This document shows positions 28,773-42,193 of a stretch of DNA of 42,936 bases, one piece after another. The translations under genes were made by a program, and so were the position numbers. The DNA is from Gallionellaceae bacterium. Its GTDB lineage: Bacteria > Pseudomonadota > Gammaproteobacteria > Burkholderiales > Gallionellaceae. The stretch is from assembly GCA_041659125.1 (NCBI GenBank), contig JBAZYW010000002.1, forward strand, positions 1 to 42,936, read 5' to 3'. The first letter of the stretch is position 1; every line of letters begins with the position of its first letter. The notes under the pieces were generated by a model. The model was given only the letters and a program-made list of their open reading frames with translations. It was not told the DNA's origin and did not search any database.

Positions 28773-28888
28773 TTAGGGTGGGGGTAGAATCTTGCCGCAT
28801 CTCAACACTTTTATCCCCATCCTAAGCTTTCCTTTCTAAGAGGGAAGGAGCTTGGCTGTAGAATTGCTCTGTTGCAGTGAGGTGAAAA

Positions 28889-29125
28889 ATGTTACTCGAT
28901 GTTGTGAATGTAAAAACCACACCGGATTTCCAGCTTGATCTGGATTTTCAGAATGGAGAGCAACGTCGTTTTGATATGCGCCCTTTGCTAACCATGCGTC
29001 CTTGGAATCGCATTGCCTCTGAGCAATTGTTTCATCGTGCATCTGTTGCCTATGGAACAGTGATCTGGCCGGGCGAGATTGACATTTCGCCTGAGACGCT
29101 CTACGACGACTCAGTTCCGTTGTGA
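28889..29125 (+). CDS. DUF2442-like small protein (78 aa)
   Basis: GAGGTG RBS 4 nt upstream. The pattern V..V....DF.L.L.F.NGE.R.FD..PLL......L.....F....V.YGTVIWPGEIDISPETLY matches my memory of the DUF2442 family. Confidence 0.65.
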   Translation: MLLDVVNVKTTPDFQLDLDFQNGEQRRFDMRPLLTMRPWNRIASEQLFHRASVAYGTVIWPGEIDISPETLYDDSVPL

Positions 29126-29212
29126 ACATGTTGAGTTAGCGTCTTTTCGCGTAAGCTAACCTATTCTGATCTAATCGCACGACGATGTTCATTTACATGC
29201 CAAAGGGAAGTT

Positions 29213-30457
29213 ATGACAATTAGCGCACTTACAGTGGAAAACTTTAAGGGAATTGCAGATCAAACTGCATTCAAGATTCGTCCGATAACAATTTTTGTTG
29301 GCGCGAACTCTTCAGGTAAAAGTAGTTGTATTCATGCACTAGCTTGTTTGTCTCAGACTATAAAGCTTGGCGATGCCTCCTCACCTTTGGTTCTTGATAA
29401 CGAGAATGCTCAAGTTCATTTGGGTCGTTTTATTGAAATAGTGCACTCAAAATCATATTCGGATCCTATTTCTCTTGGTATATCAGCAGGCAATATTTCT
29501 ATCGAATTTGGACAAAAGCCAGTCACAGGTGAGGTTTCAGGTTCATATACTTTTAAAAGTACGAAACGAACACAAGAAATATCTCTTGCTAAAGTGATCC
29601 TAAAAATTGGGGCGCGAACGATAACAATATCACCAGCAAAGGGTGGTGTGTACAAAGTAATTGATTCGGTCACTCCAGGGGTTGTTCTCGAAGCAAAACA
29701 TGTGGGGAGTTTTTCCTTCATGCTGACAACGCCAAAGAACCCCACCAGCGAATGGTTTGCAACTTTTTTTGTATTGAGAGGAATACAAGAGCATATTGAT
29801 GCGCAGCTTAAAAAAACTCTTTATCTGGGCCCTTTTCGCAGACCGCCAGCAAGAAGGTATCCTTTTAGAGGTTCGTTGCCCTCAGAGGTTGGCGCACAAG
29901 GTGAGGAGGCAATTGCACTTCTTGCGCATGAATCTGTTCAGCCAAAGAATCGACCACACACTAAGCGAGTTGCTAAATGGCTTAAAGCATTGGGGCTTGC
30001 AAAAGCAGTCGGTGTTTCACGGCTGGGCGCATCAGATTTATTTGATGTGAGCATAACTCTTGAAGATGATGCTGCGTTGCCAATTAGCGATCTTGGATAT
30101 GGTCTTTCGCAAATTTTACCGGTTCTTGCTCAATGCAGTTTTGCTCCCCAAGGAGCAACCCTATTATTTGAACAACCTGAGCTTCATCTTCATCCCGGTG
30201 CAGCGCGGAAATTAGCGCAAGTATTTGTGGAGGCGACTACAGAAAAACAAGTCAAAATTGTTGCCGAAACGCATTCACAAGATTTATTGATTGCGATGAT
30301 TTCAGAACTTAAGGCAAAACGCCTTGCGTTAACTGACATTGTTGCCTATGAAGTGCAACGTATTAATGGAAAGAGCGTCTACCGAGAAATCATCTTCGTC
30401 CAAGATGGCGACGACTTTGAGGCGGATCATCCTTGGTTCAAGTCGCTTGAGAAATAG
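29213..30457 (+). CDS. ABC/SMC-like (AAA_15/AAA_21-type) ATPase with DUF3696-like C-terminus, no fused nuclease
   Basis: Walker A FVGANSSGKSS, YLGPFR motif, signature-like SDLGYGLSQILPVL, Walker B LLLFEQPELHLHP, and H-loop AETHSQ. AAGGGAAG RBS. Low GC: 39 of the first 100 nt are G+C by hand count. Confidence 0.85.
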   Translation: MTISALTVENFKGIADQTAFKIRPITIFVGANSSGKSSCIHALACLSQTIKLGDASSPLVLDNENAQVHLGRFIEIVHSKSYSDPISLGISAGNISIEFGQKPVTGEVSGSYTFKSTKRTQEISLAKVILKIGARTITISPAKGGVYKVIDSVTPGVVLEAKHVGSFSFMLTTPKNPTSEWFATFFVLRGIQEHIDAQLKKTLYLGPFRRPPARRYPFRGSLPSEVGAQGEEAIALLAHESVQPKNRPHTKRVAKWLKALGLAKAVGVSRLGASDLFDVSITLEDDAALPISDLGYGLSQILPVLAQCSFAPQGATLLFEQPELHLHPGAARKLAQVFVEATTEKQVKIVAETHSQDLLIAMISELKAKRLALTDIVAYEVQRINGKSVYREIIFVQDGDDFEADHPWFKSLEK

Positions 30458-30507
30458 TGTAATTGTAGTGGCGCAAGTTGCTTGCTTCACAATAAATTGA
30501 GGTTGTT

Positions 30508-33873: not shown

Positions 33874-36800
33874 TTACTCGGACAATGACTTCCCGCTCGC
33901 CAGCACTGCATCGAATTCTTCTGCCGGCATCGGCTTGGCATATAGAAAACCTTGCACGTAGTCGCAACCTGCACTGAGTAAAATGTCGCGCTGCTCGGTA
34001 GTCTCCACGCCTTCCGCAACTACCTTCAAGCCGAGTTTATGCGCCATCACGATGATGGCTTCGGACAGCGCGAGGTCGTTCGGATCACTGGCGAGATCGC
34101 GCACGAAAGAACGGTCGATTTTGAGGTAGTCGATGTCGAACTTTTTCAGATAGGAAAGCGATGAGTAGCCGGTGCCAAAATCATCCAGCGCGACCTGTAT
34201 GCCCGCATCGCGGAAATTCAACAGGCTCTGCTTCACCTCCGTTCTGGCATCGAGCAACAGCCCCTCTGTGATTTCGATCACCACGCACTCGCCCGGCAGT
34301 CCGATCTTGTGCAAATGTGCCACCCAGCTTTCATGCTTGTCGTCGGGAAGGAATTGGTTCGGGGATTTGTTCACGCTCACCTGCTTGCAGGAATAGCCCT
34401 GCGTATGCCAGCGCCGCATCCATTCGACCGCTTCGTGGAAAACCCAATTGCCGATATCCACGATCAGCCCGGTCTCCTCTGCGAGTGGAATGAACTCTAG
34501 CGGGCTGACCAATCCGCGTTGCGGGTGTTGCCAGCGGATCAGCGCTTCGGCCTTGACGATCTCGCCGCTGCGCAGGTCGATGATAGGTTGGAAATATAAA
34601 CGGAACTGCTTGGCAGATAGCGCTCCGCGCAGATCTTTGATGAGATGCTGGCGTCTCTGCGCATGCTCCTGCATCTCTCCGGTGAAATAACTGAAGCCGT
34701 TGCGCCCGCGACTCTTGGCCACATACATCGCTTGATCGGCGTTCTTGAGCAAGTCTTCCACTGCGATGGCATCGTTGGGATAGAGCGTGATGCCGAGGCT
34801 GGCGGAAATATAGATCGACTCGTCGCCAAGATGGAACGGCAAGGCGAGTGTTTCGATAATATGCTCGGCAATCGACTCGACACGATGAGTGTCTTCGAGT
34901 TGCGACAGAATGACGGTGAATTCGTCGCCACCGATACGCGCCACCGTGTCGGAATCGCGCACGCAAGCACTGATGCGCTGCGCCGCCTCCACCAGCAACA
35001 GATCGCCGACATCGTGACCCAGAGTATCGTTCACTTCCTTGAAGCGGTCGAGGTCGATAAACAGCAGAGCCAGCACCTGATTCTTGCGTTGCGTCTTGTG
35101 CATCTCCTGTTCCAGACGGTCGTGGAACAAACGGCGGTTGGGCAGATGCGTGACGCTGTCGTAATTGGCCTGATGCCAGATCATATCCTCGGCACGCTTG
35201 TGTTCGATGGCGATGCTGGCAAGATTGGCTGCCTGCTGGATCAGACTAATATCGTTTTCGTCGGGAGCGCCGGAGTGACATTGATAGATAGCAAAGGTAC
35301 CGAGTATCTTTCCGCTGCTGGAGCGTATCGGCTCCGACCAGCACGAGACCAGCCCTCCCTGCTTGGCCAAGGCAAGGAATTCCGGAAAAGGCGTCCAGTA
35401 CGGATGAACATAAATGTCTTCGGCGATGACCCTTTCGCCCCGGAACGCTGCCGTGCCGCAACTGCCAACACCGTCGCCGATCGGCAAGCCGTGTACCGCA
35501 CGGTTATAATCTTCGGGCAAGCTCGGGGCCGCCCCCAGCAGCAGGCGTTTGCCCTCTTCATCCAATAGCAGAATGGAACAAAGCAGGCCGTTGCGGGCGC
35601 TCTCGACGCTGCGCACGATCTGCTGCAACACCTCCGGCAGCTCCCCGCCCTTGGCCAGCAACTCAAAAATCATGTTGCGCGTCCGCTCCTGCTCGATGTT
35701 GCGCTGGCGCTCGGTGATGTCGCGTCCGACGCCGATCAGGCCAAGCAACTCGCCCTTGGCTCCGAACAGAGGAGTCTTGACCATCTCCAGAAAGATGTTG
35801 CGTCCGTCGGCAGCAGGCATCCATTCTTCGTAACGCAACGGTACTTTGCCGGCCATCGCCAACTTATCCTGCGCGTCGAAATATCGGGCCTTCTGCTCCG
35901 GCACAAAGTCGAAAATAGTCTTGCCGATAAGATCACTCTCGCTGCGCCCGAGCAAAGTCTCAAATGCCTTGTTGCAGCCGAGGAAGCGTCCCTCGCTATC
36001 CTTGTAAAAAATATAATCGGGAATCGTGTTGACCACGCTTTGCAAGCGATGCCCGATGGCGTGGATGACATCGTTTTGCGCCGCATCTTTCTCGCGGCGC
36101 AATATCTGGATGCGATCCGCCAAGGCAAAAGACAACAGCAACATCTCCAGCGCCGAACCGATCTGGATGCCGTACAGTGTGAGAAAGTTGGTCGGCATCA
36201 AACCCAGATTGCGCGCGCCCATCATCGAAACGCCCGTCATCAGCAGCGCCCATGCCAATAAAAAATATCTTGCGCCCGCCTGCTTCTTGCGCAAACAAAC
36301 GATGCCGCTACTGATGACCGCGATGGGCGTGGTCGCACCGAGCAGAGAAACGGCCAGCGCTCCCCAGCGATATGGCAGCAAAGCGCAGCCCAGCAAAGTC
36401 AGCACGAATAACGCGATGAGCAGCAACAATACGCGATCATGGCGCGGCGTATTCTTTCGGGTATCGAGAAAGTAGCGTGTGAACAAAATGCCGAACACGC
36501 CTGCCGCCGCGAAACCGACGGGAAGCGCCGCATTACCCCAGCCCGGCGCATCGGGCCACAGGAACTGGTTGCCCAATCCGCTCAGCGACAACAGCCCCAC
36601 CGCCAAGCTCGCGACAAAACACACATAAGCCAGATAGACGCGTTCGCGCAAAGAAAGGTACAGCAACAAGTTGTACAACATCAGTGCCAGCAACATGCCG
36701 AAATACAAAGCCAGCGCGCCGTAACTATTCTGGTTGTGCAGGTCGAAATCGTTCTCTTCCCACAAGTGCAACGGGATAGTCAGCGTGCCGGAAGATTGCA

Positions 36801-37308
36801 CGCGCAAATAGAGCGTCTGCTGTCCCTCCGACAACATGAGAGGAAATACGAAGTTGCGATGGACAGCAGGGCGCGCGGAAAACGGCACAAGATCGCCAGC
36901 CTCAAAATGTCGCCAACCGTTCGCACCGACGACGTAAAGCGTCACATGGTCGAGCGAGGGGAACGCGACTTCCAGCAACATGCGGCTGGCCGATACTTCA
37001 TGGGCATCGATGTTCAGGCGCAGCCAATACGTCGAGGCGGAATATCCGTAGTTGATGTCGCTATCGAGATTTACCCGACTCTGTATAGCGGGGTGAAAAT
37101 CACCACCATGAGCAGCGCTGCTAACCTCTTCGATGGTGAGCTTGCCTTCAGGATCTTCCAGCGCCTCCATATATTTGGCGATAGCAAAATACGAAGTCGC
37201 AGGCGACACCTCCAACGGTGCCGAGGCCTGCGCTACCGTGGCGCAGAACAAGGTGCAAAGCCCGAATAGCAGGCTGACGAAGACGGAAAGGCGAGCGGCA
37301 GTTTTCAT
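33874..37308 (-). CDS. 7TMR-DISM (extracellular DISMED2 + 7TM) - PAS - GAF - GGDEF - EAL signalling protein
   Basis: Signal peptide, a periplasmic domain of about 170 aa, then 7 hydrophobic helices. PAS (FYKDSEGRFLGCNKAFE) and a GAF-like region. RIGGDEF (intact GGDEF). EALIRW...DDFGTGYSS...EGVE..QG (intact EAL). Confidence 0.9.
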   Translation of the reverse strand: MKTAARLSVFVSLLFGLCTLFCATVAQASAPLEVSPATSYFAIAKYMEALEDPEGKLTIEEVSSAAHGGDFHPAIQSRVNLDSDINYGYSASTYWLRLNIDAHEVSASRMLLEVAFPSLDHVTLYVVGANGWRHFEAGDLVPFSARPAVHRNFVFPLMLSEGQQTLYLRVQSSGTLTIPLHLWEENDFDLHNQNSYGALALYFGMLLALMLYNLLLYLSLRERVYLAYVCFVASLAVGLLSLSGLGNQFLWPDAPGWGNAALPVGFAAAGVFGILFTRYFLDTRKNTPRHDRVLLLLIALFVLTLLGCALLPYRWGALAVSLLGATTPIAVISSGIVCLRKKQAGARYFLLAWALLMTGVSMMGARNLGLMPTNFLTLYGIQIGSALEMLLLSFALADRIQILRREKDAAQNDVIHAIGHRLQSVVNTIPDYIFYKDSEGRFLGCNKAFETLLGRSESDLIGKTIFDFVPEQKARYFDAQDKLAMAGKVPLRYEEWMPAADGRNIFLEMVKTPLFGAKGELLGLIGVGRDITERQRNIEQERTRNMIFELLAKGGELPEVLQQIVRSVESARNGLLCSILLLDEEGKRLLLGAAPSLPEDYNRAVHGLPIGDGVGSCGTAAFRGERVIAEDIYVHPYWTPFPEFLALAKQGGLVSCWSEPIRSSSGKILGTFAIYQCHSGAPDENDISLIQQAANLASIAIEHKRAEDMIWHQANYDSVTHLPNRRLFHDRLEQEMHKTQRKNQVLALLFIDLDRFKEVNDTLGHDVGDLLLVEAAQRISACVRDSDTVARIGGDEFTVILSQLEDTHRVESIAEHIIETLALPFHLGDESIYISASLGITLYPNDAIAVEDLLKNADQAMYVAKSRGRNGFSYFTGEMQEHAQRRQHLIKDLRGALSAKQFRLYFQPIIDLRSGEIVKAEALIRWQHPQRGLVSPLEFIPLAEETGLIVDIGNWVFHEAVEWMRRWHTQGYSCKQVSVNKSPNQFLPDDKHESWVAHLHKIGLPGECVVIEITEGLLLDARTEVKQSLLNFRDAGIQVALDDFGTGYSSLSYLKKFDIDYLKIDRSFVRDLASDPNDLALSEAIIVMAHKLGLKVVAEGVETTEQRDILLSAGCDYVQGFLYAKPMPAEEFDAVLASGKSLSE

Positions 37309-37394
37309 GGCCGCTCATCTTACGATAAATTTCCGCTGAAAATATGTTTCAATAACACTTAGCAGGTTAAAAATTAATGCACGGAAAGAAAGAT

Positions 37395-38015
37395 ATGCAA
37401 CCGAAAGAGCATTGGGAAAAAGTCTATAGCAGCAAAGCTGCTGACGCGGTGAGCTGGTTCCAGCCGCATGCCGACCTGTCGCTCGATCTCATCAAAGCCA
37501 CGGGAGCTGCACTCGACGCGGGCATCATCGACGTGGGCGGCGGCGCCTCGACGCTGGTGGACGATCTCATCGCCAATGGCTACAGCGACCTGACCGTACT
37601 CGATCTTTCTGCGGCTGCGCTGGATGCGGCCCGTCATCGTCTTGGAACGCAAGAAAGCAAAGTGAACTGGATCGTGGCCGACATCACCCAAGCCGAACTT
37701 CCGTCCAAGCGTTACGACATCTGGCATGACCGCGCCGTATTCCATTTCCTCACCACACAGAAACAACGCGATGCCTATGTGCGCACCGTATTCCATTCGG
37801 TCAAGCCGGGCGGCCATGTCATCATCGCCACCTTCGCCGAAGACGGCCCGGAGCAATGCAGCGGGCTACCCGTGATGCGCTATCGTGCGGATGATTTGCA
37901 CGACGAATTCGGCGACGCATTTACTTTGCTAAAGCATCAGAAAGAAGCGCACCAAACCCCGTTCGGCACCGTGCAGCAGTTCGTCTATTGCTATTGCCGC
38001 CGCGCGGGTTCCTGA
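37395..38015 (+). CDS. Class I SAM-dependent methyltransferase
   Basis: IIDVGGGASTLVDDL motif I and VKPGGHVIIATF. The start could be 37377 or 37395; the latter has a purine-rich GGAAAGAAAG upstream. Confidence 0.75.
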   Translation: MQPKEHWEKVYSSKAADAVSWFQPHADLSLDLIKATGAALDAGIIDVGGGASTLVDDLIANGYSDLTVLDLSAAALDAARHRLGTQESKVNWIVADITQAELPSKRYDIWHDRAVFHFLTTQKQRDAYVRTVFHSVKPGGHVIIATFAEDGPEQCSGLPVMRYRADDLHDEFGDAFTLLKHQKEAHQTPFGTVQQFVYCYCRRAGS

Positions 38016-38030
38016 TCTTCGTCCAAACAA

Positions 38031-38936
38031 TCACACCAGCTGTTTGATCCCCACCACCTTGGCTAGCGCCACTGCCTGCACCAATGCTTCGACAGCCTGT
38101 GTGCGCGCAAAGCTCTTACGCCATGCCAATGCGATACGCCGCGAAGGGATCGGCTTGGTGAAGGGAATGACTTTCAGCAAGCGGCTGCGATAACGCGGAC
38201 TGTTGGCTGAAGCGGGCAGCACGGTGATGCCGTGGCCGGAGGCGACCATGTTGCGTATGGTCTCCAGCGAGGTGCCATGTTGAATATCCGCGCTTTTGCG
38301 GTCGAGTTCCGGGCAAGCTTCGGCCACCTGATTGCTGAAGCAATGACCGGAATCGAGCAGTAACACTTTTTCTGCGGCTAACTCTTGCGCTTTGATGCTG
38401 CGCCGATTGGCCCAGCGATGTTCGTTGCCGATCACCACCTCGAACGGCTCGTCATATAACGACCTGGTGAGAATGCTGCCATCGCCGAACGGCAACGCGA
38501 TGATGATGATATCCAGCTTGCCGTTGCGCAGCAGAGTATCCAGATTAGCGGTGATGTTCTCTTCTATTTCCAGCTGCATTCCCGGCGCGATTTTTTTCAG
38601 CGAGGGGACAAGGTCGGGCAACAAATAGGGGCCGACGCTGTGGATGACGCCCAGACGCAAAACACCGGCCAACTGGTCTTCGCCGTACCGGGCGATTTCC
38701 CGGATGCGCCGGATCTCTTCCAGAGCGCGTTGCGCCTGCTCCACAATTGCACCGCCGACCTGCGTGAGGGAAACATCGCTTTTCCCGCGCTCGAAAATCT
38801 TCAGGCCCAATTCCTCTTCGAGCTTCTGTATCGCCAACGATAGAGCGGGTTGGCTGATGAATGATTTTTCTGCGGCGCGCCGGAAGTTGCGTTCCTGTGC
38901 CACGGCGACGATATAGCGTAGTTCGTTCAAAGTCAT
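38031..38936 (-). CDS. oxyR: LysR-family hydrogen peroxide-sensing regulator OxyR
   Basis: The HTH MTLNELRYIVAVAQERNFRRAAEKSFISQPALS. LLLDSGHCFSNQVAEAC...TSLETIRNMVASGHGITVLPA aligns with E. coli OxyR around the redox Cys199/Cys208. GGAGAG RBS before the ATG at 38936. Confidence 0.85.
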   Translation of the reverse strand: MTLNELRYIVAVAQERNFRRAAEKSFISQPALSLAIQKLEEELGLKIFERGKSDVSLTQVGGAIVEQAQRALEEIRRIREIARYGEDQLAGVLRLGVIHSVGPYLLPDLVPSLKKIAPGMQLEIEENITANLDTLLRNGKLDIIIIALPFGDGSILTRSLYDEPFEVVIGNEHRWANRRSIKAQELAAEKVLLLDSGHCFSNQVAEACPELDRKSADIQHGTSLETIRNMVASGHGITVLPASANSPRYRSRLLKVIPFTKPIPSRRIALAWRKSFARTQAVEALVQAVALAKVVGIKQLV

Positions 38937-38949
38937 AATGCTCTCCGCT

Positions 38950-39000
38950 GATTTGCATAGCAAATCGTAGCATATAAAATTTTCAATTAGATTTATCGGT
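38950..39000. promoter_or_regulatory. Putative OxyR operator in the oxyR / rubrerythrin divergent region
   Basis: Perfect palindrome GATTTGC-ATA-GCAAATC (38950-38966), followed by ATAG/TAG-containing AT-rich repeats (CATAGCAAATCGTAGCATAT...ATTAGATTTATCGG). Confidence 0.4.
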
Positions 39001-39081
39001 GCACAAAGCCTAAATTGCCAGCGTGGACGACGGGGCTTTTTCCGCAGTTCATTCGTTTCTCAAACTTTTTAGGAGACCATC

Positions 39082-39501
39082 ATGCAACTCAAAGGATCCA
39101 AAACCCACCAGCACCTGAAGGATGCGTTTGCCGGAGAATCACAGGCCAATCGCCGTTATCTGTATTTCGCGGCCAAAGCGGATGTGGAAGGCCAGAACGA
39201 TGTGGCCTCGGTGTTTCGCTCTACCGCAGAAGGAGAGACCGGACATGCGCACGGCCATTTGGAATACATGGAGGCCTGCGGCGACCCCGCCACCGATCTG
39301 CCCATCGGCGGAACCCGTGACAATCTGAAATCTGCCATCGCCGGTGAGACACACGAATACACCGACATGTATCCCGGCATGGGCAAGACTGCACGGGTGG
39401 AAGGTTTCGACGAGATCGCCGACTGGTTCGAAACACTGGCCAAGGCCGAGCGCTCGCATGCCAACCGTTTCCAGAAGGCGCTGGACAATCTGGCGGATTG
39501 A
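39082..39501 (+). CDS. Rubrerythrin-family di-iron protein lacking the rubredoxin domain (erythrin-type)
   Basis: [17 protein letters not shown]. Di-iron ligands E...ETGH (ExxH) and E...ERSH (ExxH) in a 139-aa four-helix-bundle-sized protein. No C-terminal CxxC pairs. AGGAGA RBS. Confidence 0.85.
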
Positions 39502-39512
39502 AAGCGCTGGCT

Positions 39513-39545
39513 CGCATCCCCCGACGGACTTAGATGGGGGATGCG
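39513..39545 (+). promoter_or_regulatory. GC hairpin between the rubrerythrin and Fe-S protein genes
   Basis: CGCATCCCCC (39513-39522) / GGGGGATGCG (39536-39545) form a perfect 10-bp stem with a 13-nt loop. Weak T-content follows. Confidence 0.45.
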
Positions 39546-39595
39546 CGTCTTGATGTTCACAACGAATATGCTAATTTAGTAGCAGGAGGGATGCG

Positions 39596-40924
39596 ATGAG
39601 TACACGCGAAGGCAATCTGGGTGCACCGCAGCGCCACCCGCTAGACTGGCGCAACCCGGAGTTTTACAACGAAGCCTCGCTGATGGACGAACTGCACCGG
39701 GTATATGACATCTGTCACGGTTGCCGGCGCTGCTTCAATCTGTGCAATGCCTTTCCCACTTTGTTCGACGCGGTAGACGCGAGCCCCTCGAACGAACTGG
39801 ACAGCATCGAGAAGACGGTCTACTGGAAAGTGGTCGACCAGTGCTATCTGTGCGACATGTGCTTCATGACCAAGTGCCCGTATGTACCGCCGCACCCGTT
39901 CAATCTGGATTTCCCGCATTTGATGCTGCGCGCCAAAGCGGTGAAGTTCAACAAAGGCGAAACCAGATTCCGCGACAAACTGTTGTCCAGCACCGACCTG
40001 ATGGGCAAACTGGCGTCCATTCCGGTGGTCACCCAAGTGGTGAACGGGGTGAACAACACCTCTGCCACCCGCAAGGTCATGGACAGCGTGCTGGGGATTC
40101 ATCAGCAGCGCAAACTACCCGAATATTCCAGCCGTACTTTTCGCGCCAATGCCGCGCCCGACGAGCGCTTCCCGGTCAGGAACGGTGAACGCACGCCGGG
40201 CAAAGTGGCGGTCTACTCGACCTGCTACATCAATTACAACGAGCCGGGCATCGGCCACGATCTGCTCGACATCCTCGCGCACAATGAAATCCCCGCGCGT
40301 CTGGTGGAGAAAGAAGCCTGCTGCGGCATGCCCAAACTGGAGCTTGGCGATCTGCAAGCGGTCAAGCGCCTCAAGGAAAGCAACATTCCCCACCTCGCCA
40401 GACTGGCGCGCGAAGGCTACGCCATCGTCACGGCGATTCCCTCATGCACGCTGATGTACAAACAGGAACTGCCGCTGATGTTCCCCGACGACGCCGAGGT
40501 GAAGGCGGTGGCAGAAGCGATGTTTGATCCGTTCGAATATCTGATGCTGCGCCACAAGGATGGCCTGCTCAAAACCGATTTCAAAAACAAGCTGGGCAAA
40601 GTCTCCTACCATGTGCCGTGTCACTTGCGCGTGCAGAACCTCGGCCTGAAGACGCGCGCCATGCTGCAACTGGTGCCGGACACCGAGATCACCACGGTGG
40701 AGCGCTGCTCCGGCCACGACGGCACTTGGGGCGTAAAGAGCGAATTCTTTGCGGAATCGATGAAGATCGGCAAACCGGTGTTCAAGCAAATGGCCTCCGG
40801 CGAGCCGGACTATGTCAGTTCGGACTGCGCCATCGCCGCACGCCACATCATGCAGGGCATCGGTGAAACACCGGCGCAAAAACAGCATCCGCTCACGCTG
40901 CTGCGCATCGCTTATGGATTATGA
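39596..40924 (+). CDS. (Fe-S)-binding protein with two 4Fe-4S ferredoxin motifs and CCG domains (HdrD/GlpC/GlcF-like)
   Basis: CHGCRRCFNLC and CYLCDMCFMTKCP cluster motifs. CCG-type motif EACCGMP and further Cys-containing repeats (IPSC, VPCH, ERCSG, SSDC). 442 aa. GGAGGG RBS. Confidence 0.85.
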   Translation: MSTREGNLGAPQRHPLDWRNPEFYNEASLMDELHRVYDICHGCRRCFNLCNAFPTLFDAVDASPSNELDSIEKTVYWKVVDQCYLCDMCFMTKCPYVPPHPFNLDFPHLMLRAKAVKFNKGETRFRDKLLSSTDLMGKLASIPVVTQVVNGVNNTSATRKVMDSVLGIHQQRKLPEYSSRTFRANAAPDERFPVRNGERTPGKVAVYSTCYINYNEPGIGHDLLDILAHNEIPARLVEKEACCGMPKLELGDLQAVKRLKESNIPHLARLAREGYAIVTAIPSCTLMYKQELPLMFPDDAEVKAVAEAMFDPFEYLMLRHKDGLLKTDFKNKLGKVSYHVPCHLRVQNLGLKTRAMLQLVPDTEITTVERCSGHDGTWGVKSEFFAESMKIGKPVFKQMASGEPDYVSSDCAIAARHIMQGIGETPAQKQHPLTLLRIAYGL

Positions 40925-40983
40925 GCAATTGTAAGTTTCGATTTTTTGATGACTAAGACAATCTTTCGACAAAAGGAACAGCA

Positions 40984-41571
40984 ATGGCAAAATTAACCCG
41001 TGACAAACTCATGACGCTGGAAGCCTATGCCAAAGCGCGCAACGCTTTTCGCGCAGAAGTGATGGCGCACAAGAAGCAACGCAACGTCGCATTGGGCGAG
41101 CACCTCACGCTGATCTTCGAGGACGAGCTGACCATACGCTATCAGGTGCAGGAAATGCTGCGCGCGGAAAAAATCTTCGAGGAAACCGGCATCCAGGACG
41201 AACTCGACGCCTACAATCCGCTCATTCCGGATGGCAGCAACTGGAAGGCGACCATGATGATCGAATACGAAGACATCAATGAACGCCGCCGCATGCTTAC
41301 CCGACTGGTCGGCATCGAAGAACGCGCGTGGGTGCAGGTGGCTGGTTTCGATCGCGTCTACGCCATCGCCGACGAAGATCTGGAACGCGCCACCGAGCAG
41401 AAGACCTCGGCGGTGCACTTCCTGAGCTTCGAACTAACCACAGAGATGTCGCGCGCCCTGAAACAGGGTACGGCCCTGAGCATGGGGGTCGATCACCCAA
41501 ACTATCAGGCCACCTTTGATCCGATCCCGCCGACGATACGCGCCTCTCTGCTGCTTGACCTGCAAAATTGA
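40984..41571 (+). CDS. DUF3501-like protein (195 aa), function unknown
   Basis: AAGGAA RBS. Soluble, acidic protein with no cofactor motif I can see. The family assignment is from memory of DUF3501 proteins that accompany rubrerythrin/CCG Fe-S genes. Confidence 0.6.
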   Translation: MAKLTRDKLMTLEAYAKARNAFRAEVMAHKKQRNVALGEHLTLIFEDELTIRYQVQEMLRAEKIFEETGIQDELDAYNPLIPDGSNWKATMMIEYEDINERRRMLTRLVGIEERAWVQVAGFDRVYAIADEDLERATEQKTSAVHFLSFELTTEMSRALKQGTALSMGVDHPNYQATFDPIPPTIRASLLLDLQN

Positions 41572-41608
41572 GGCGTCCATCCGCAACACATGGAGGTTGC
41601 TTTCCGAT

Positions 41609-41686
41609 TTGCGCAACAAATCGAAACGGTTTGCACAATCAATTTGATTTGATGTGTGCAAAAGAATAAATTGCGATTGTGTGCAA
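41609..41686. promoter_or_regulatory. Repeated TTGCRCA(C)AATC motifs upstream of dps (candidate operator)
   Basis: TTGCGCAAC (41609-41617) and TTGCACAATC (41631-41640) on the plus strand. GATGTGTGCAA (41651-41661) and GATTGTGTGCAA (41675-41686) are inverted copies. Confidence 0.35.
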
Positions 41687-41713
41687 GCCATTCACCAACC
41701 AATGGAGGACATC

Positions 41714-42193
41714 ATGAAGACTTCATCAATCAACATCGGCATCAGCGAAAAAGACCGCAAGAAAATCGCCGACGGCTTGGGGCGTATGCTGGCCGACAGC
41801 TACACCCTCTACCTCAAAACCCACAACTTCCATTGGAACGTCACCGGCCCGATGTTCCAGACACTGCACCTGATGTTCATGACCCAGTACAACGAAATCT
41901 GGATGGCCGTGGACATGGTGGCAGAACGCATCCGCGCGCTGGGCTACCCGGCTCCCGGCACATACAAAGAGTTCGCCGCGCTCACCAGCATTGAAGACAG
42001 CAAAGGTGTGCCGAACGCGAAAGAAATGATCAGGCAACTCGTCGCCGGACAGGAAGCCGTAGTGCGCACCGCACGCGCGGTGCTGCCCATCGCAGAAAAG
42101 GCGGGCGACCAACCAACGGTCGATTTGCTCTCCGCACGGATGCAGGTGCATGAGCAAAATGCGTGGATGCTACGGAGTTTGTTAGAGGAATAA
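41714..42193 (+). CDS. dps: Dps (DNA protection during starvation / miniferritin)
   Basis: LADSYTLYLKTHNFHWNVTGPMFQTLHLMF..QY and D.VAERIRALG motifs. TGGAGGA RBS before the ATG at 41714. Confidence 0.9.
   Translation: MKTSSINIGISEKDRKKIADGLGRMLADSYTLYLKTHNFHWNVTGPMFQTLHLMFMTQYNEIWMAVDMVAERIRALGYPAPGTYKEFAALTSIEDSKGVPNAKEMIRQLVAGQEAVVRTARAVLPIAEKAGDQPTVDLLSARMQVHEQNAWMLRSLLEE

Follow-up and report, generated by a model that had tools for sequence, protein, structure and literature searches.

An OxyR-adjacent rubrerythrin, iron-sulfur protein, and DUF3501 gene cluster in a Gallionellaceae genome: a probable peroxide-inducible hydrogen peroxide scavenging module

We analyzed a stretch of 42,936 nt from a Gallionellaceae bacterium (GCA_041659125.1, contig JBAZYW010000002.1, positions 1 to 42,936), referred to here in its entirety as the window, and focused on a gene cluster in which oxyR lies divergent from a rubrerythrin gene (rbr), a gene for an Fe-S protein of the family named RFO, a DUF3501 gene, and dps. 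The nearest named relatives are metagenome-assembled genomes (MAGs) of Gallionella and Nitrosomonadales. All five genes proved to lie where, and in the orientation in which, a first-pass annotation had placed them, and the features of the locus, including two operator-promoter regions and a stem-loop, are as follows.

38031-38936, minus strand: oxyR, 301 aa from the ATG at 38936, with HTH_1 and LysR_substrate domains
38950-39016, plus strand: predicted rbr operator-promoter, with the dyad GATTTGCataGCAAATC at 38950-38966, the proximal element TCAATTaGATTT at 38983-38994, and a -10-like TAAATT at 39011-39016
39082-39501, plus strand: rbr, 139 aa (PF02915), an aerobic-type rubrerythrin without a rubredoxin domain
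39513-39545, plus strand: GC-rich intercistronic stem-loop of about 11 bp, between rbr and the RFO gene
39596-40924, plus strand: RFO gene (Fe-S protein), 442 aa, with two [4Fe-4S] motifs and two CCG domains
40984-41571, plus strand: DUF3501 gene (PF12007, 5e-75)
41606-41672, plus strand: predicted dps operator-promoter, with the dyad GATTTGCgcaaCAAATC at 41606-41622, TCAATTtGATTT at 41639-41650, and a -10-like TAAATT at 41667-41672
41715-42193, plus strand: dps, encoding a 159-aa Dps-family miniferritin (PF00210, 7e-29)

The outermost genes each offered a longer frame that we did not retain. A 310-aa oxyR open reading frame (ORF) starting at TTG is an over-extension, as the orthologs in relatives are all 301 aa long and match the ATG start, and a 179-aa dps ORF starting at GTG was rejected in favor of the ATG at 41715, which has a GGAGGA ribosome-binding site and gives 159 aa as in relatives. 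The best NCBIfam match of the regulator is OxyR by a wide margin (243 bits, below the 329 cut-off of the enterobacterial model NF008361) and its best PDB match is Pseudomonas aeruginosa OxyR (4x6g, 299 bits), with whose C199 and C208 the GHCF...EACP residues align, such that both redox cysteines are present. The Dps protein matches the DpsA and Dps models of NCBIfam best, with scores under their cut-offs.

The rubrerythrin (Rbr) matches PF02915 alone (3e-27), ends at residue 139, and covers just positions 3 to 146 of the 194-position NCBIfam rubrerythrin model, with one cysteine in the whole protein; the absence of a rubredoxin domain, as first annotated, is therefore borne out. Direct reading of the sequence gives the ligand motifs E19, E52xxH55, E89, and E123xxH126. 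The protein is about 83% identical to the Burkholderia pseudomallei Rbr structures 9onm and 4di0 (252 bits), and it scores higher against sulerythrin (173 bits) than against the classical Desulfovibrio vulgaris Rbr (92 bits). Since Rbr lacks a rubredoxin domain, electrons have to come from outside, and the annotated dependence on an external reductant agrees with the behavior of the ortholog ferriperoxin, which is a peroxidase only if NADPH and FNR are provided (PMC3317640).

RFO combines two ferredoxin-type motifs (C40xxC43xxC46xxxC50 and C83xxC86xxC89xxxxC94P) with two CCG domains (PF02754, 2.3e-14), the first containing C210, C242, C243, and C284 and the second C342, C371, and C411, where the C371 motif reads CSG. 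All 15 of its cysteines, 8 of them in the ferredoxin motifs, are invariant among 75 orthologs, and the protein is 57 to 90% identical to RFO proteins encoded after rbr at other loci. In NCBIfam the top matches are two GlpC models, both below cut-offs (244 versus 278 and 190 versus 280), together with LdhH, a subunit of the quinone-dependent L-lactate dehydrogenase; TfrB, which is thiol-dependent, comes next (6e-21). Sequence and profile searches of RFO against PDB chains returned nothing usable; only a fold comparison, made with the AlphaFold2 (AF2) model of the RFO-DUF3501 fusion described below, gave links, its CCG half resembling LutA (template modeling [TM] score of 0.80), EtfD, and HdrB (TM score of about 0.6). 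No hydrophobic or transmembrane segment was found in RFO, and neither the GlpC partner genes glpA and glpB in the window nor glcD/E or lutB/C nearby were detected.

HdrD and HdrB are defined by two complete CXnCCGXmCXXC motifs, each with five cysteines, which bind two non-cubane [4Fe-4S] clusters. With 4 + 3 CCG cysteines against the ten in HdrB, RFO is no standard heterodisulfide reductase. The HdrD/GlpC/GlcF-like architecture proposed for it thus stands as regards the two ferredoxin motifs and the CCG domains, but not as regards the full HdrD/HdrB cysteine set (4 + 3 rather than 5 + 5, with CSG in one motif).

DUF3501 has no conserved cysteine, and its nearly invariant residues are Y15, R19, R33, E46, T50, Y53, E57, H145, H171, and D192. 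Its closest PDB entry is 3fjv (BPSS1837, 2.5e-67), and its AF2 model is of high confidence (predicted local distance difference test [pLDDT] score of 94.8). A fold search of the PDB with this protein found no neighbor except its own structural-genomics entry 3fjv and so no functional lead; DUF3501 is an orphan fold. The family comprises 2,631 representatives at 50% identity; those longer than 195 aa that seemed to be fusions to Rbr or other domains turned out to be frameshift or chimera artifacts. A different fusion is natural: RFO at the N terminus joined to DUF3501, first seen at a Nitrosomonas locus and later found in over 100 protein clusters (656 to 668 aa). The AF2 model of the fusion of strain Is79A3 has a pLDDT of 79.7, and its C-terminal part matches 3fjv. 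Such fusions show RFO and DUF3501 to act as a unit, as the first-pass annotation had supposed. At loci without RFO (L045, L062, and L076) the rbr stop codon touches or overlaps the DUF3501 start, a contact that fits a direct partnership of Rbr and DUF3501. In many public records the name "glycerol-3-phosphate dehydrogenase subunit C" is given to DUF3501 proteins and to RFO-DUF3501 fusions, an error propagated from the GlpC-like neighbor.

To place the cluster among other genomes we used a sample of 80 reference-genome loci (L001 to L080), mostly from other Betaproteobacteria with some Gammaproteobacteria, collected with DUF3501 alone as bait (a trimmed version of a 30-sequence alignment, the untrimmed one being too diverse). 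The genes rbr, RFO, and DUF3501 occur in the same order in about 66 of these loci, and together with the 185 of 4,461 genomes that carry the triple in an earlier survey (PMC5114695) this shows clustering of the trio far beyond chance. That survey, by Cardenas, Quatrini and Holmes in 2016, defined the aerobic-type RBR, named the COG0247 Fe-S oxidoreductase RFO, reported its co-localization with DUF3501, found only one exception each of RFO and of DUF3501 without RBR, noted RFO-DUF3501 fusions in Nitrosomonas, and proposed RFO as compensation for the lost rubredoxin domain (PMC5114695). Maaty et al. 2009 had already remarked that the "glpC" downstream of the Sulfolobus rubrerythrin probably has a different function (PMC2739297). 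Gray et al. 2020 described a three-component system with predicted mitochondrial targeting in protists and inferred it for the last eukaryotic common ancestor, and a 2025 preprint on B. pseudomallei Rbr restates the partner hypothesis. The distribution of the trio is limited to mitochondria and organisms with aerobic respiration (PMC5114695; Gray et al. 2020).

With all three families present, the window locus can be assigned by sequence to the aerobic-type rubrerythrin system (RBR-RFO-DUF3501). The proposal of a candidate peroxide-reducing electron-transfer system is not a new one, the same role for RFO having been published by Cardenas et al. (PMC5114695); the accompanying statement that the Fe-S/DUF3501 pair lacks biochemical work stands, none having been found in the literature on DUF3501, RFO, sulerythrin, ferriperoxin, and glpC with rubrerythrin. 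The published system and the window trio share the same families, gene order, RFO motifs, and compensation hypothesis. What the window adds, and what is new here relative to the papers searched, is the divergent pairing with oxyR, dps, twin operator-promoters, and a scavenger slot.

The regions upstream of rbr and dps resemble each other over 72 nt with equal spacing (dyad, 16 nt, TCAATTnGATTT, 16 nt, TAAATTGC). This collinearity amounts to 44 identities of 72, compared to a window-wide mean of 17.3 (standard deviation, 3.7; z of about 7), and the next best position reaches 34. The rbr dyad GATTTGCataGCAAATC is perfect and the dps-side copy has one mismatch; these are the 2 matches with at most one mismatch in the window, where 0.04 would be expected. 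The dyad, GATTTG-N5-CAAATC, retains the LysR T-N11-A core; its frame, GAT...ATC, spans 17 bp, and another, degenerate dyad lies at a distance of one 22-bp step. The rbr operator block with its -10-like TAnATTGC is invariant in 7 relatives, and the dps block is kept upstream of dps in L081 and L088. We preferred TAnATTGC as the -10 element because it is conserved in relatives; the TTTGCA-17-TAAAAT returned by a generic promoter scan was discarded, its -10 not being conserved in relatives. Transcription is predicted to start near 39023 for rbr and near 41679 for dps. No -35 element is recognizable at the rbr and dps promoters where the operator lies, and an operator overlying the -35 position would correspond to the usual layout of an OxyR-activated promoter. 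Only 14 bp separate the dyad from the oxyR ATG, a distance that implies LysR-type autoregulation and would make oxyR a target of its own product.

Downstream of rbr, the spacer before RFO is predicted to fold stably (minimum free energy of -34.7 kcal/mol for 39499-39598, z = -2.3), and a helix run of at least 7 is present in this spacer in 95 to 98% of 83 loci, a raw figure with composition uncontrolled. The stem-loop is a possible attenuator or mRNA stabilizer that would set Rbr above RFO and DUF3501 in amount.

A scan of metagenome contigs with the composite operator (18 specified bases), in which the gene downstream of each match was classified and key identities were confirmed by Pfam, extended these observations; since the loci were picked by the operator pattern itself, the counts are illustrative and not a census. 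Among the matches listed, the genes under the operator include 56 of rbr type, about 13 katG, 2 monofunctional catalase, and 6 dps, with the operator about 70 nt upstream of the katG, catalase, and dps genes. An OxyR ortholog (73 to 84% identical) divergently adjoins the operator in at least about 76 metagenome loci, often with ubiA on the far side. The slot between oxyR and ubiA is occupied, again among the matches listed and with or without dps, by Rbr-RFO-(EncFtn-like)-DUF3501 (about 21 loci), by Rbr2-rubredoxin-NAD(P)H:rubredoxin reductase (about 32 loci), by KatG (about 14 loci), or by catalase (2 loci), and at some loci, such as L083, two modules stand in tandem. That the operator precedes katG, catalase, and dps and has OxyR orthologs beside it indicates that it marks the peroxide regulon of this clade and that, as judged from sequence, the trio belongs to that regulon. 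Because the trio swaps in place with KatG, catalase, and the Rbr2 module, it appears to be interchangeable with bona fide H2O2 scavengers.

Rbr2 is a 157-aa rubredoxin-less erythrin, 35 to 45% identical to the window Rbr; the rbr2 gene precedes those for a rubredoxin of 54 aa and a rubredoxin reductase of 389 aa. Its module sits in the oxyR-adjacent slot alone or behind the trio (L083:5809-7688; see also, e.g., L113, L131, L142, and L193), and the Rbr2 promoter of L083 resembles a diverged copy of the rbr operator-promoter. That Rbr2 travels with its own textbook electron-supply genes suggests, by analogy, that RFO and DUF3501 form the supply chain of Rbr. In sister lineages an EncFtn-like (PF22277) ferritin-like gene of 96 to 97 aa is inserted between RFO and DUF3501 (L083:4706-4996, L087:4706-4996, L089:4705-4998; also L106, L115, L119, L140, L160, and L194), where the window has a 59-bp spacer (40925-40983).

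The linkage of the trio to oxyR and dps is not a general trait: among the 80 reference loci oxyR lies nearby in only 2 and dps in none, the other neighbors being unrelated housekeeping genes. The layout with oxyR and dps thus appears, from gene order, to be a Gallionellaceae/Nitrosomonadales-type arrangement and no general property of the system. Nor do all members of the clade keep dps: L085 has none, and in L083 rbr2-rd-rdr takes its place. Given a promoter and operator of its own, and its absence or replacement among sister lineages, dps is no integral part of the system and is best described, on present sequences, as a co-regulated, separately promoted, optional passenger of the slot. Of the proposed OxyR control of the trio plus Dps, the peroxide regulon part is upheld by the operator common to katG, catalase, and dps and by the H2O2 induction of orthologs, but not the inclusion of Dps as an integral component.

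More distant relatives carry a different element at rbr. The window-type dyad was not found upstream of rbr in 70 distant loci, while TTAGAC-N3-GTCTAA, which does not occur in the window, is present in 34 of 70 distant beta- and gammaproteobacterial rbr upstream regions versus 15 of 2,100 control windows. A near-consensus sigma70 promoter (TTGACA-17-TATACT) precedes it by about 11 bp. The dyad stands upstream of the rbr ATG by about 97 nt in L002, 96 nt in L013, and 62 nt in L039, and this position at the transcription start, after the promoter, argues for a repressor operator. An OxyR tetramer site was considered for it and rejected, given the position and the lack of any further dyad at +/-22 bp. 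With its 6-3-6 geometry it is similar to the Irr ICE box, though only in the shape of the motif; the Irr target blr7895 is not an aerobic-type Rbr but, according to the literature, MbfA.

Arrangements around the cluster vary in other ways as well. At L090 (3006-10588) the operator and trio occur, but no oxyR adjoins them; the gene divergent upstream is flavodoxin/FMN-reductase-like, and a sufBCD-sufS Fe-S assembly operon directly follows DUF3501. In the window, an S-adenosylmethionine-dependent methyltransferase gene (37377-38015, plus strand) is convergent with oxyR across a 15-bp gap, and at L081 (1410-2042) and L085 (1414-2061) a methyltransferase gene runs in the same direction as oxyR, with a 4-bp overlap at the oxyR stop, which reflects either an inversion or a different methyltransferase.

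Experiments in relatives bear on the function of the cluster. In B. pseudomallei, bpss1837 (DUF3501, crystallized as 3fjv), bpss1838 (RFO), and bpss1839 (Rbr) rise by log2 fold changes of 3.3 to 3.4 ten minutes after exposure to 100 uM H2O2, comparable to katG (PMC4175613). In Sulfolobus solfataricus exposed to 30 uM H2O2, SSO2643-2645 are up 4- to 7-fold on arrays, and the rubrerythrin SSO2642 was reported as up-regulated (PMC2739297). Ferriperoxin of Hydrogenobacter thermophilus is an aerobic-type Rbr that reduces H2O2 and organic hydroperoxides only if given NADPH and FNR, with a Km for H2O2 of 1.6 mM and negligible oxidase activity, and its gene is essential at 10% O2 (PMC3317640); the millimolar Km could reflect missing native partners. 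The OxyR of Rhodanobacter has been reported in a preprint to target rbr and dps.

A role of the cluster in peroxide defense has good support. Taken together, these observations lead us to interpret the locus as a peroxide-inducible H2O2-scavenging module of the aerobic-type rubrerythrin system in which RFO and DUF3501 supply the electrons, a reading to which we assign a probability of roughly 60%. Under this interpretation, oxidized OxyR would bind an operator of about 45 bp that overlaps the weak -35 region, activating the two like-built promoters of the rbr-RFO-DUF3501 unit and the dps unit and autoregulating oxyR. Rbr would probably form a domain-swapped di-iron dimer, as does the Burkholderia ortholog to which it is 83% identical, and would reduce H2O2 to water and probably organic hydroperoxides too, a peroxidase step that has been shown biochemically for the ortholog ferriperoxin. 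The soluble RFO-DUF3501 pair would be its dedicated electron supply, with RFO taking up electrons at the CCG-domain cluster and passing them through its two [4Fe-4S] clusters, and with the cysteine-free DUF3501 docking Rbr such that the di-iron site comes within tunneling distance. The stem-loop after rbr probably makes Rbr exceed its reductase in amount, and Dps may act in parallel by sequestering Fe(II) and consuming H2O2.

As to the electron donor, our leading guess is the respiratory quinol pool, which takes less than half of the weight given to the overall interpretation, followed by a thiol and then by ferredoxin/FNR. Quinol is ranked first because GlpC, LdhH, and EtfD act at the quinone interface and because only aerobic respirers and mitochondria have the trio. 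The more specific proposal that Rbr-RFO-DUF3501 is a respiratory-chain-coupled quinol (or low-molecular-weight thiol):H2O2 oxidoreductase, in which the donor is oxidized at the CCG cluster and DUF3501 docks Rbr, is one we advance only tentatively and consider doubtful as it stands.

Several points weigh against the scavenging module with RFO-DUF3501 electron supply. Ferriperoxin turns over in vitro with NADPH and FNR alone, such that RFO and DUF3501 are not strictly required (PMC3317640), and the literature on the system holds no experiment in which Rbr receives electrons from RFO or DUF3501. Rbr and DUF3501 occur without RFO in Thermoproteales and a few bacteria (PMC5114695 and the loci examined here). 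The CCG domains of RFO are cysteine-poor (4 + 3). The AF2 model of the Is79A3 fusion has a predicted TM score of only 0.63, with a disordered linker at 445-466. Finally, the assignment of the operator to OxyR draws on adjacency and regulon content.

The alternative that survives best, though we consider it unlikely, is one of iron handling or repair, with Rbr as a ferroxidase or metal buffer and with RFO and DUF3501 delivering or repairing iron or Fe-S clusters beside Dps. The iron-themed neighbors (dps, the EncFtn-like insert, and the suf operon of L090) are in keeping with such a role, as are the near-invariant Glu, His, Asp, and Tyr residues of DUF3501, which come without Cys, and the promiscuous metal binding of B. 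pseudomallei Rbr described in the 2025 preprint. Ferriperoxin, however, is a measured peroxidase with negligible oxidase activity (PMC3317640), the slot that the trio shares with KatG and catalase under OxyR control points to a scavenger, and an invariant 2x[4Fe-4S] plus CCG arrangement is the architecture of an electron-transfer subunit.

Next comes the proposal, also improbable, that RFO-DUF3501 is an Hdr-like disulfide reductase (or another reductase) that repairs thiols and is merely co-regulated with Rbr, which would itself be reduced by generic FNR or ferredoxin. The reduction of ferriperoxin by FNR and NADPH without RFO or DUF3501 (PMC3317640), the score of RFO against the thiol:fumarate reductase subunit TfrB, and the HdrB-like fold could all be accommodated in this way. 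It sits poorly with the nearly constant association of DUF3501 and RFO with aerobic-type Rbr, to which 4,461 genomes supply a single exception for each protein (PMC5114695) and which holds alike in eukaryotes (Gray et al. 2020), and the CCG motifs of RFO lack the full HdrB cysteine set.

A further possibility concerns the regulator, in that the shared operator might belong to a factor other than OxyR, for example one of the Fur/PerR family or another peroxide- or iron-responsive factor. GATTTG-N5-CAAATC does differ from the textbook ATAG-N7-CTAT, L090 has the operator without an adjacent oxyR, and other Beta- and Gammaproteobacteria place a different, repressor-type dyad at rbr. We nevertheless give this possibility little credence, since an OxyR ortholog lies immediately divergent from the site in the at least about 76 operator-bearing loci noted above, the site keeps the T-N11-A core and 17-bp frame of LysR regulators with the second degenerate dyad 22 bp away, and its targets katG, catalase, and dps constitute the classical OxyR regulon. 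Least of all do we favor the view that the Fe-S protein is an ordinary dehydrogenase subunit (GlpC, GlcF, or LutA/LdhH) that merely lies beside rbr, which the top NCBIfam ranking of GlpC models and the frequent GlpC labels of homologs and DUF3501 proteins in databases would invite, but which is very hard to reconcile with the missed GlpC cut-offs, the lack of glpA/glpB, glcD/E, and lutB/C nearby, the conserved synteny with rbr and DUF3501, the RFO-DUF3501 fusions, and the peroxide induction of the cluster in two distant organisms (PMC4175613, PMC2739297).

The scavenging module that we favor has several relatives among known systems. Ferriperoxin, sulerythrin of Sulfolobus tokodaii, and BPSS1839 are, like the window Rbr, single-domain and probably domain-swapped di-iron erythrins, and BPSS1837-1839 form the same operon as the window trio. 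Ferriperoxin differs in that the RFO gene of H. thermophilus is unlinked and that its assays relied on FNR and NADPH rather than on RFO or DUF3501, whereas sulerythrin differs in having been isolated with an Fe-Zn center. The classical chains of Rbr, rubredoxin, and NAD(P)H:rubredoxin oxidoreductase in Desulfovibrio and Pyrococcus follow a like logic, a di-iron peroxidase served by a dedicated one-electron carrier, and the Rbr2-Rd-RdR module of sister lineages displays this logic in the same slot. In contrast, the window trio has neither a rubredoxin domain or gene nor a flavoprotein reductase, and its proposed carrier is a multicluster Fe-S protein together with the cofactor-less DUF3501.

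Like RFO, the proteins GlpC, LdhH, EtfD, GlcF, and HdrD/HdrB have two ferredoxin-type clusters at the N terminus and, after these, two CCG domains. RFO differs from GlpC, LdhH, EtfD, GlcF, and HdrD in having no partner dehydrogenase, no membrane anchor, and fewer CCG cysteines, and its electrons are proposed to flow outward to a peroxidase, whereas GlpC-type subunits take electrons in from a dehydrogenase. Another likeness is with the OxyR-controlled katG-dpsA of B. pseudomallei, where, as reportedly found by Loprasert et al. in 2003, dpsA also has its own promoter: sister lineages carry katG-dps in the slot, and the window has the trio in KatG's place.

The trio is widespread, and its Rbr is essential for aerobic growth in at least H. 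thermophilus. The swapping of modules in one slot under a single OxyR-type operator offers independent evidence, from genomes, for regarding the trio as a complete H2O2 scavenger. If the tentative donor assignment is correct, a quinol:H2O2 oxidoreductase would be conserved from Sulfolobales via Proteobacteria to the ancestral mitochondrion and would be interchangeable in vivo with KatG and catalase. The results also provide defined DNA sites and protein pairs for testing.

Elsewhere in the window, a 1,144-aa multidomain ORF (33874-37308, minus strand) lies two genes upstream of oxyR and has no evident link to the cluster; the sequence itself suggests a membrane sensor that carries GGDEF and EAL (cyclic di-GMP) domains. 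Between purH and purD, a low-GC stretch (28800-30500; GC of 0.43 versus about 0.56 elsewhere) holds the gene for a 414-aa AAA_15/AAA_21 ATPase, with PADLOC hits at about 1e-45 to the models HEC-03B, NsnB, and PDC-M55A. A small defense-type gene seems to have been inserted here, and it adjoins a 97-aa ORF without a family match.

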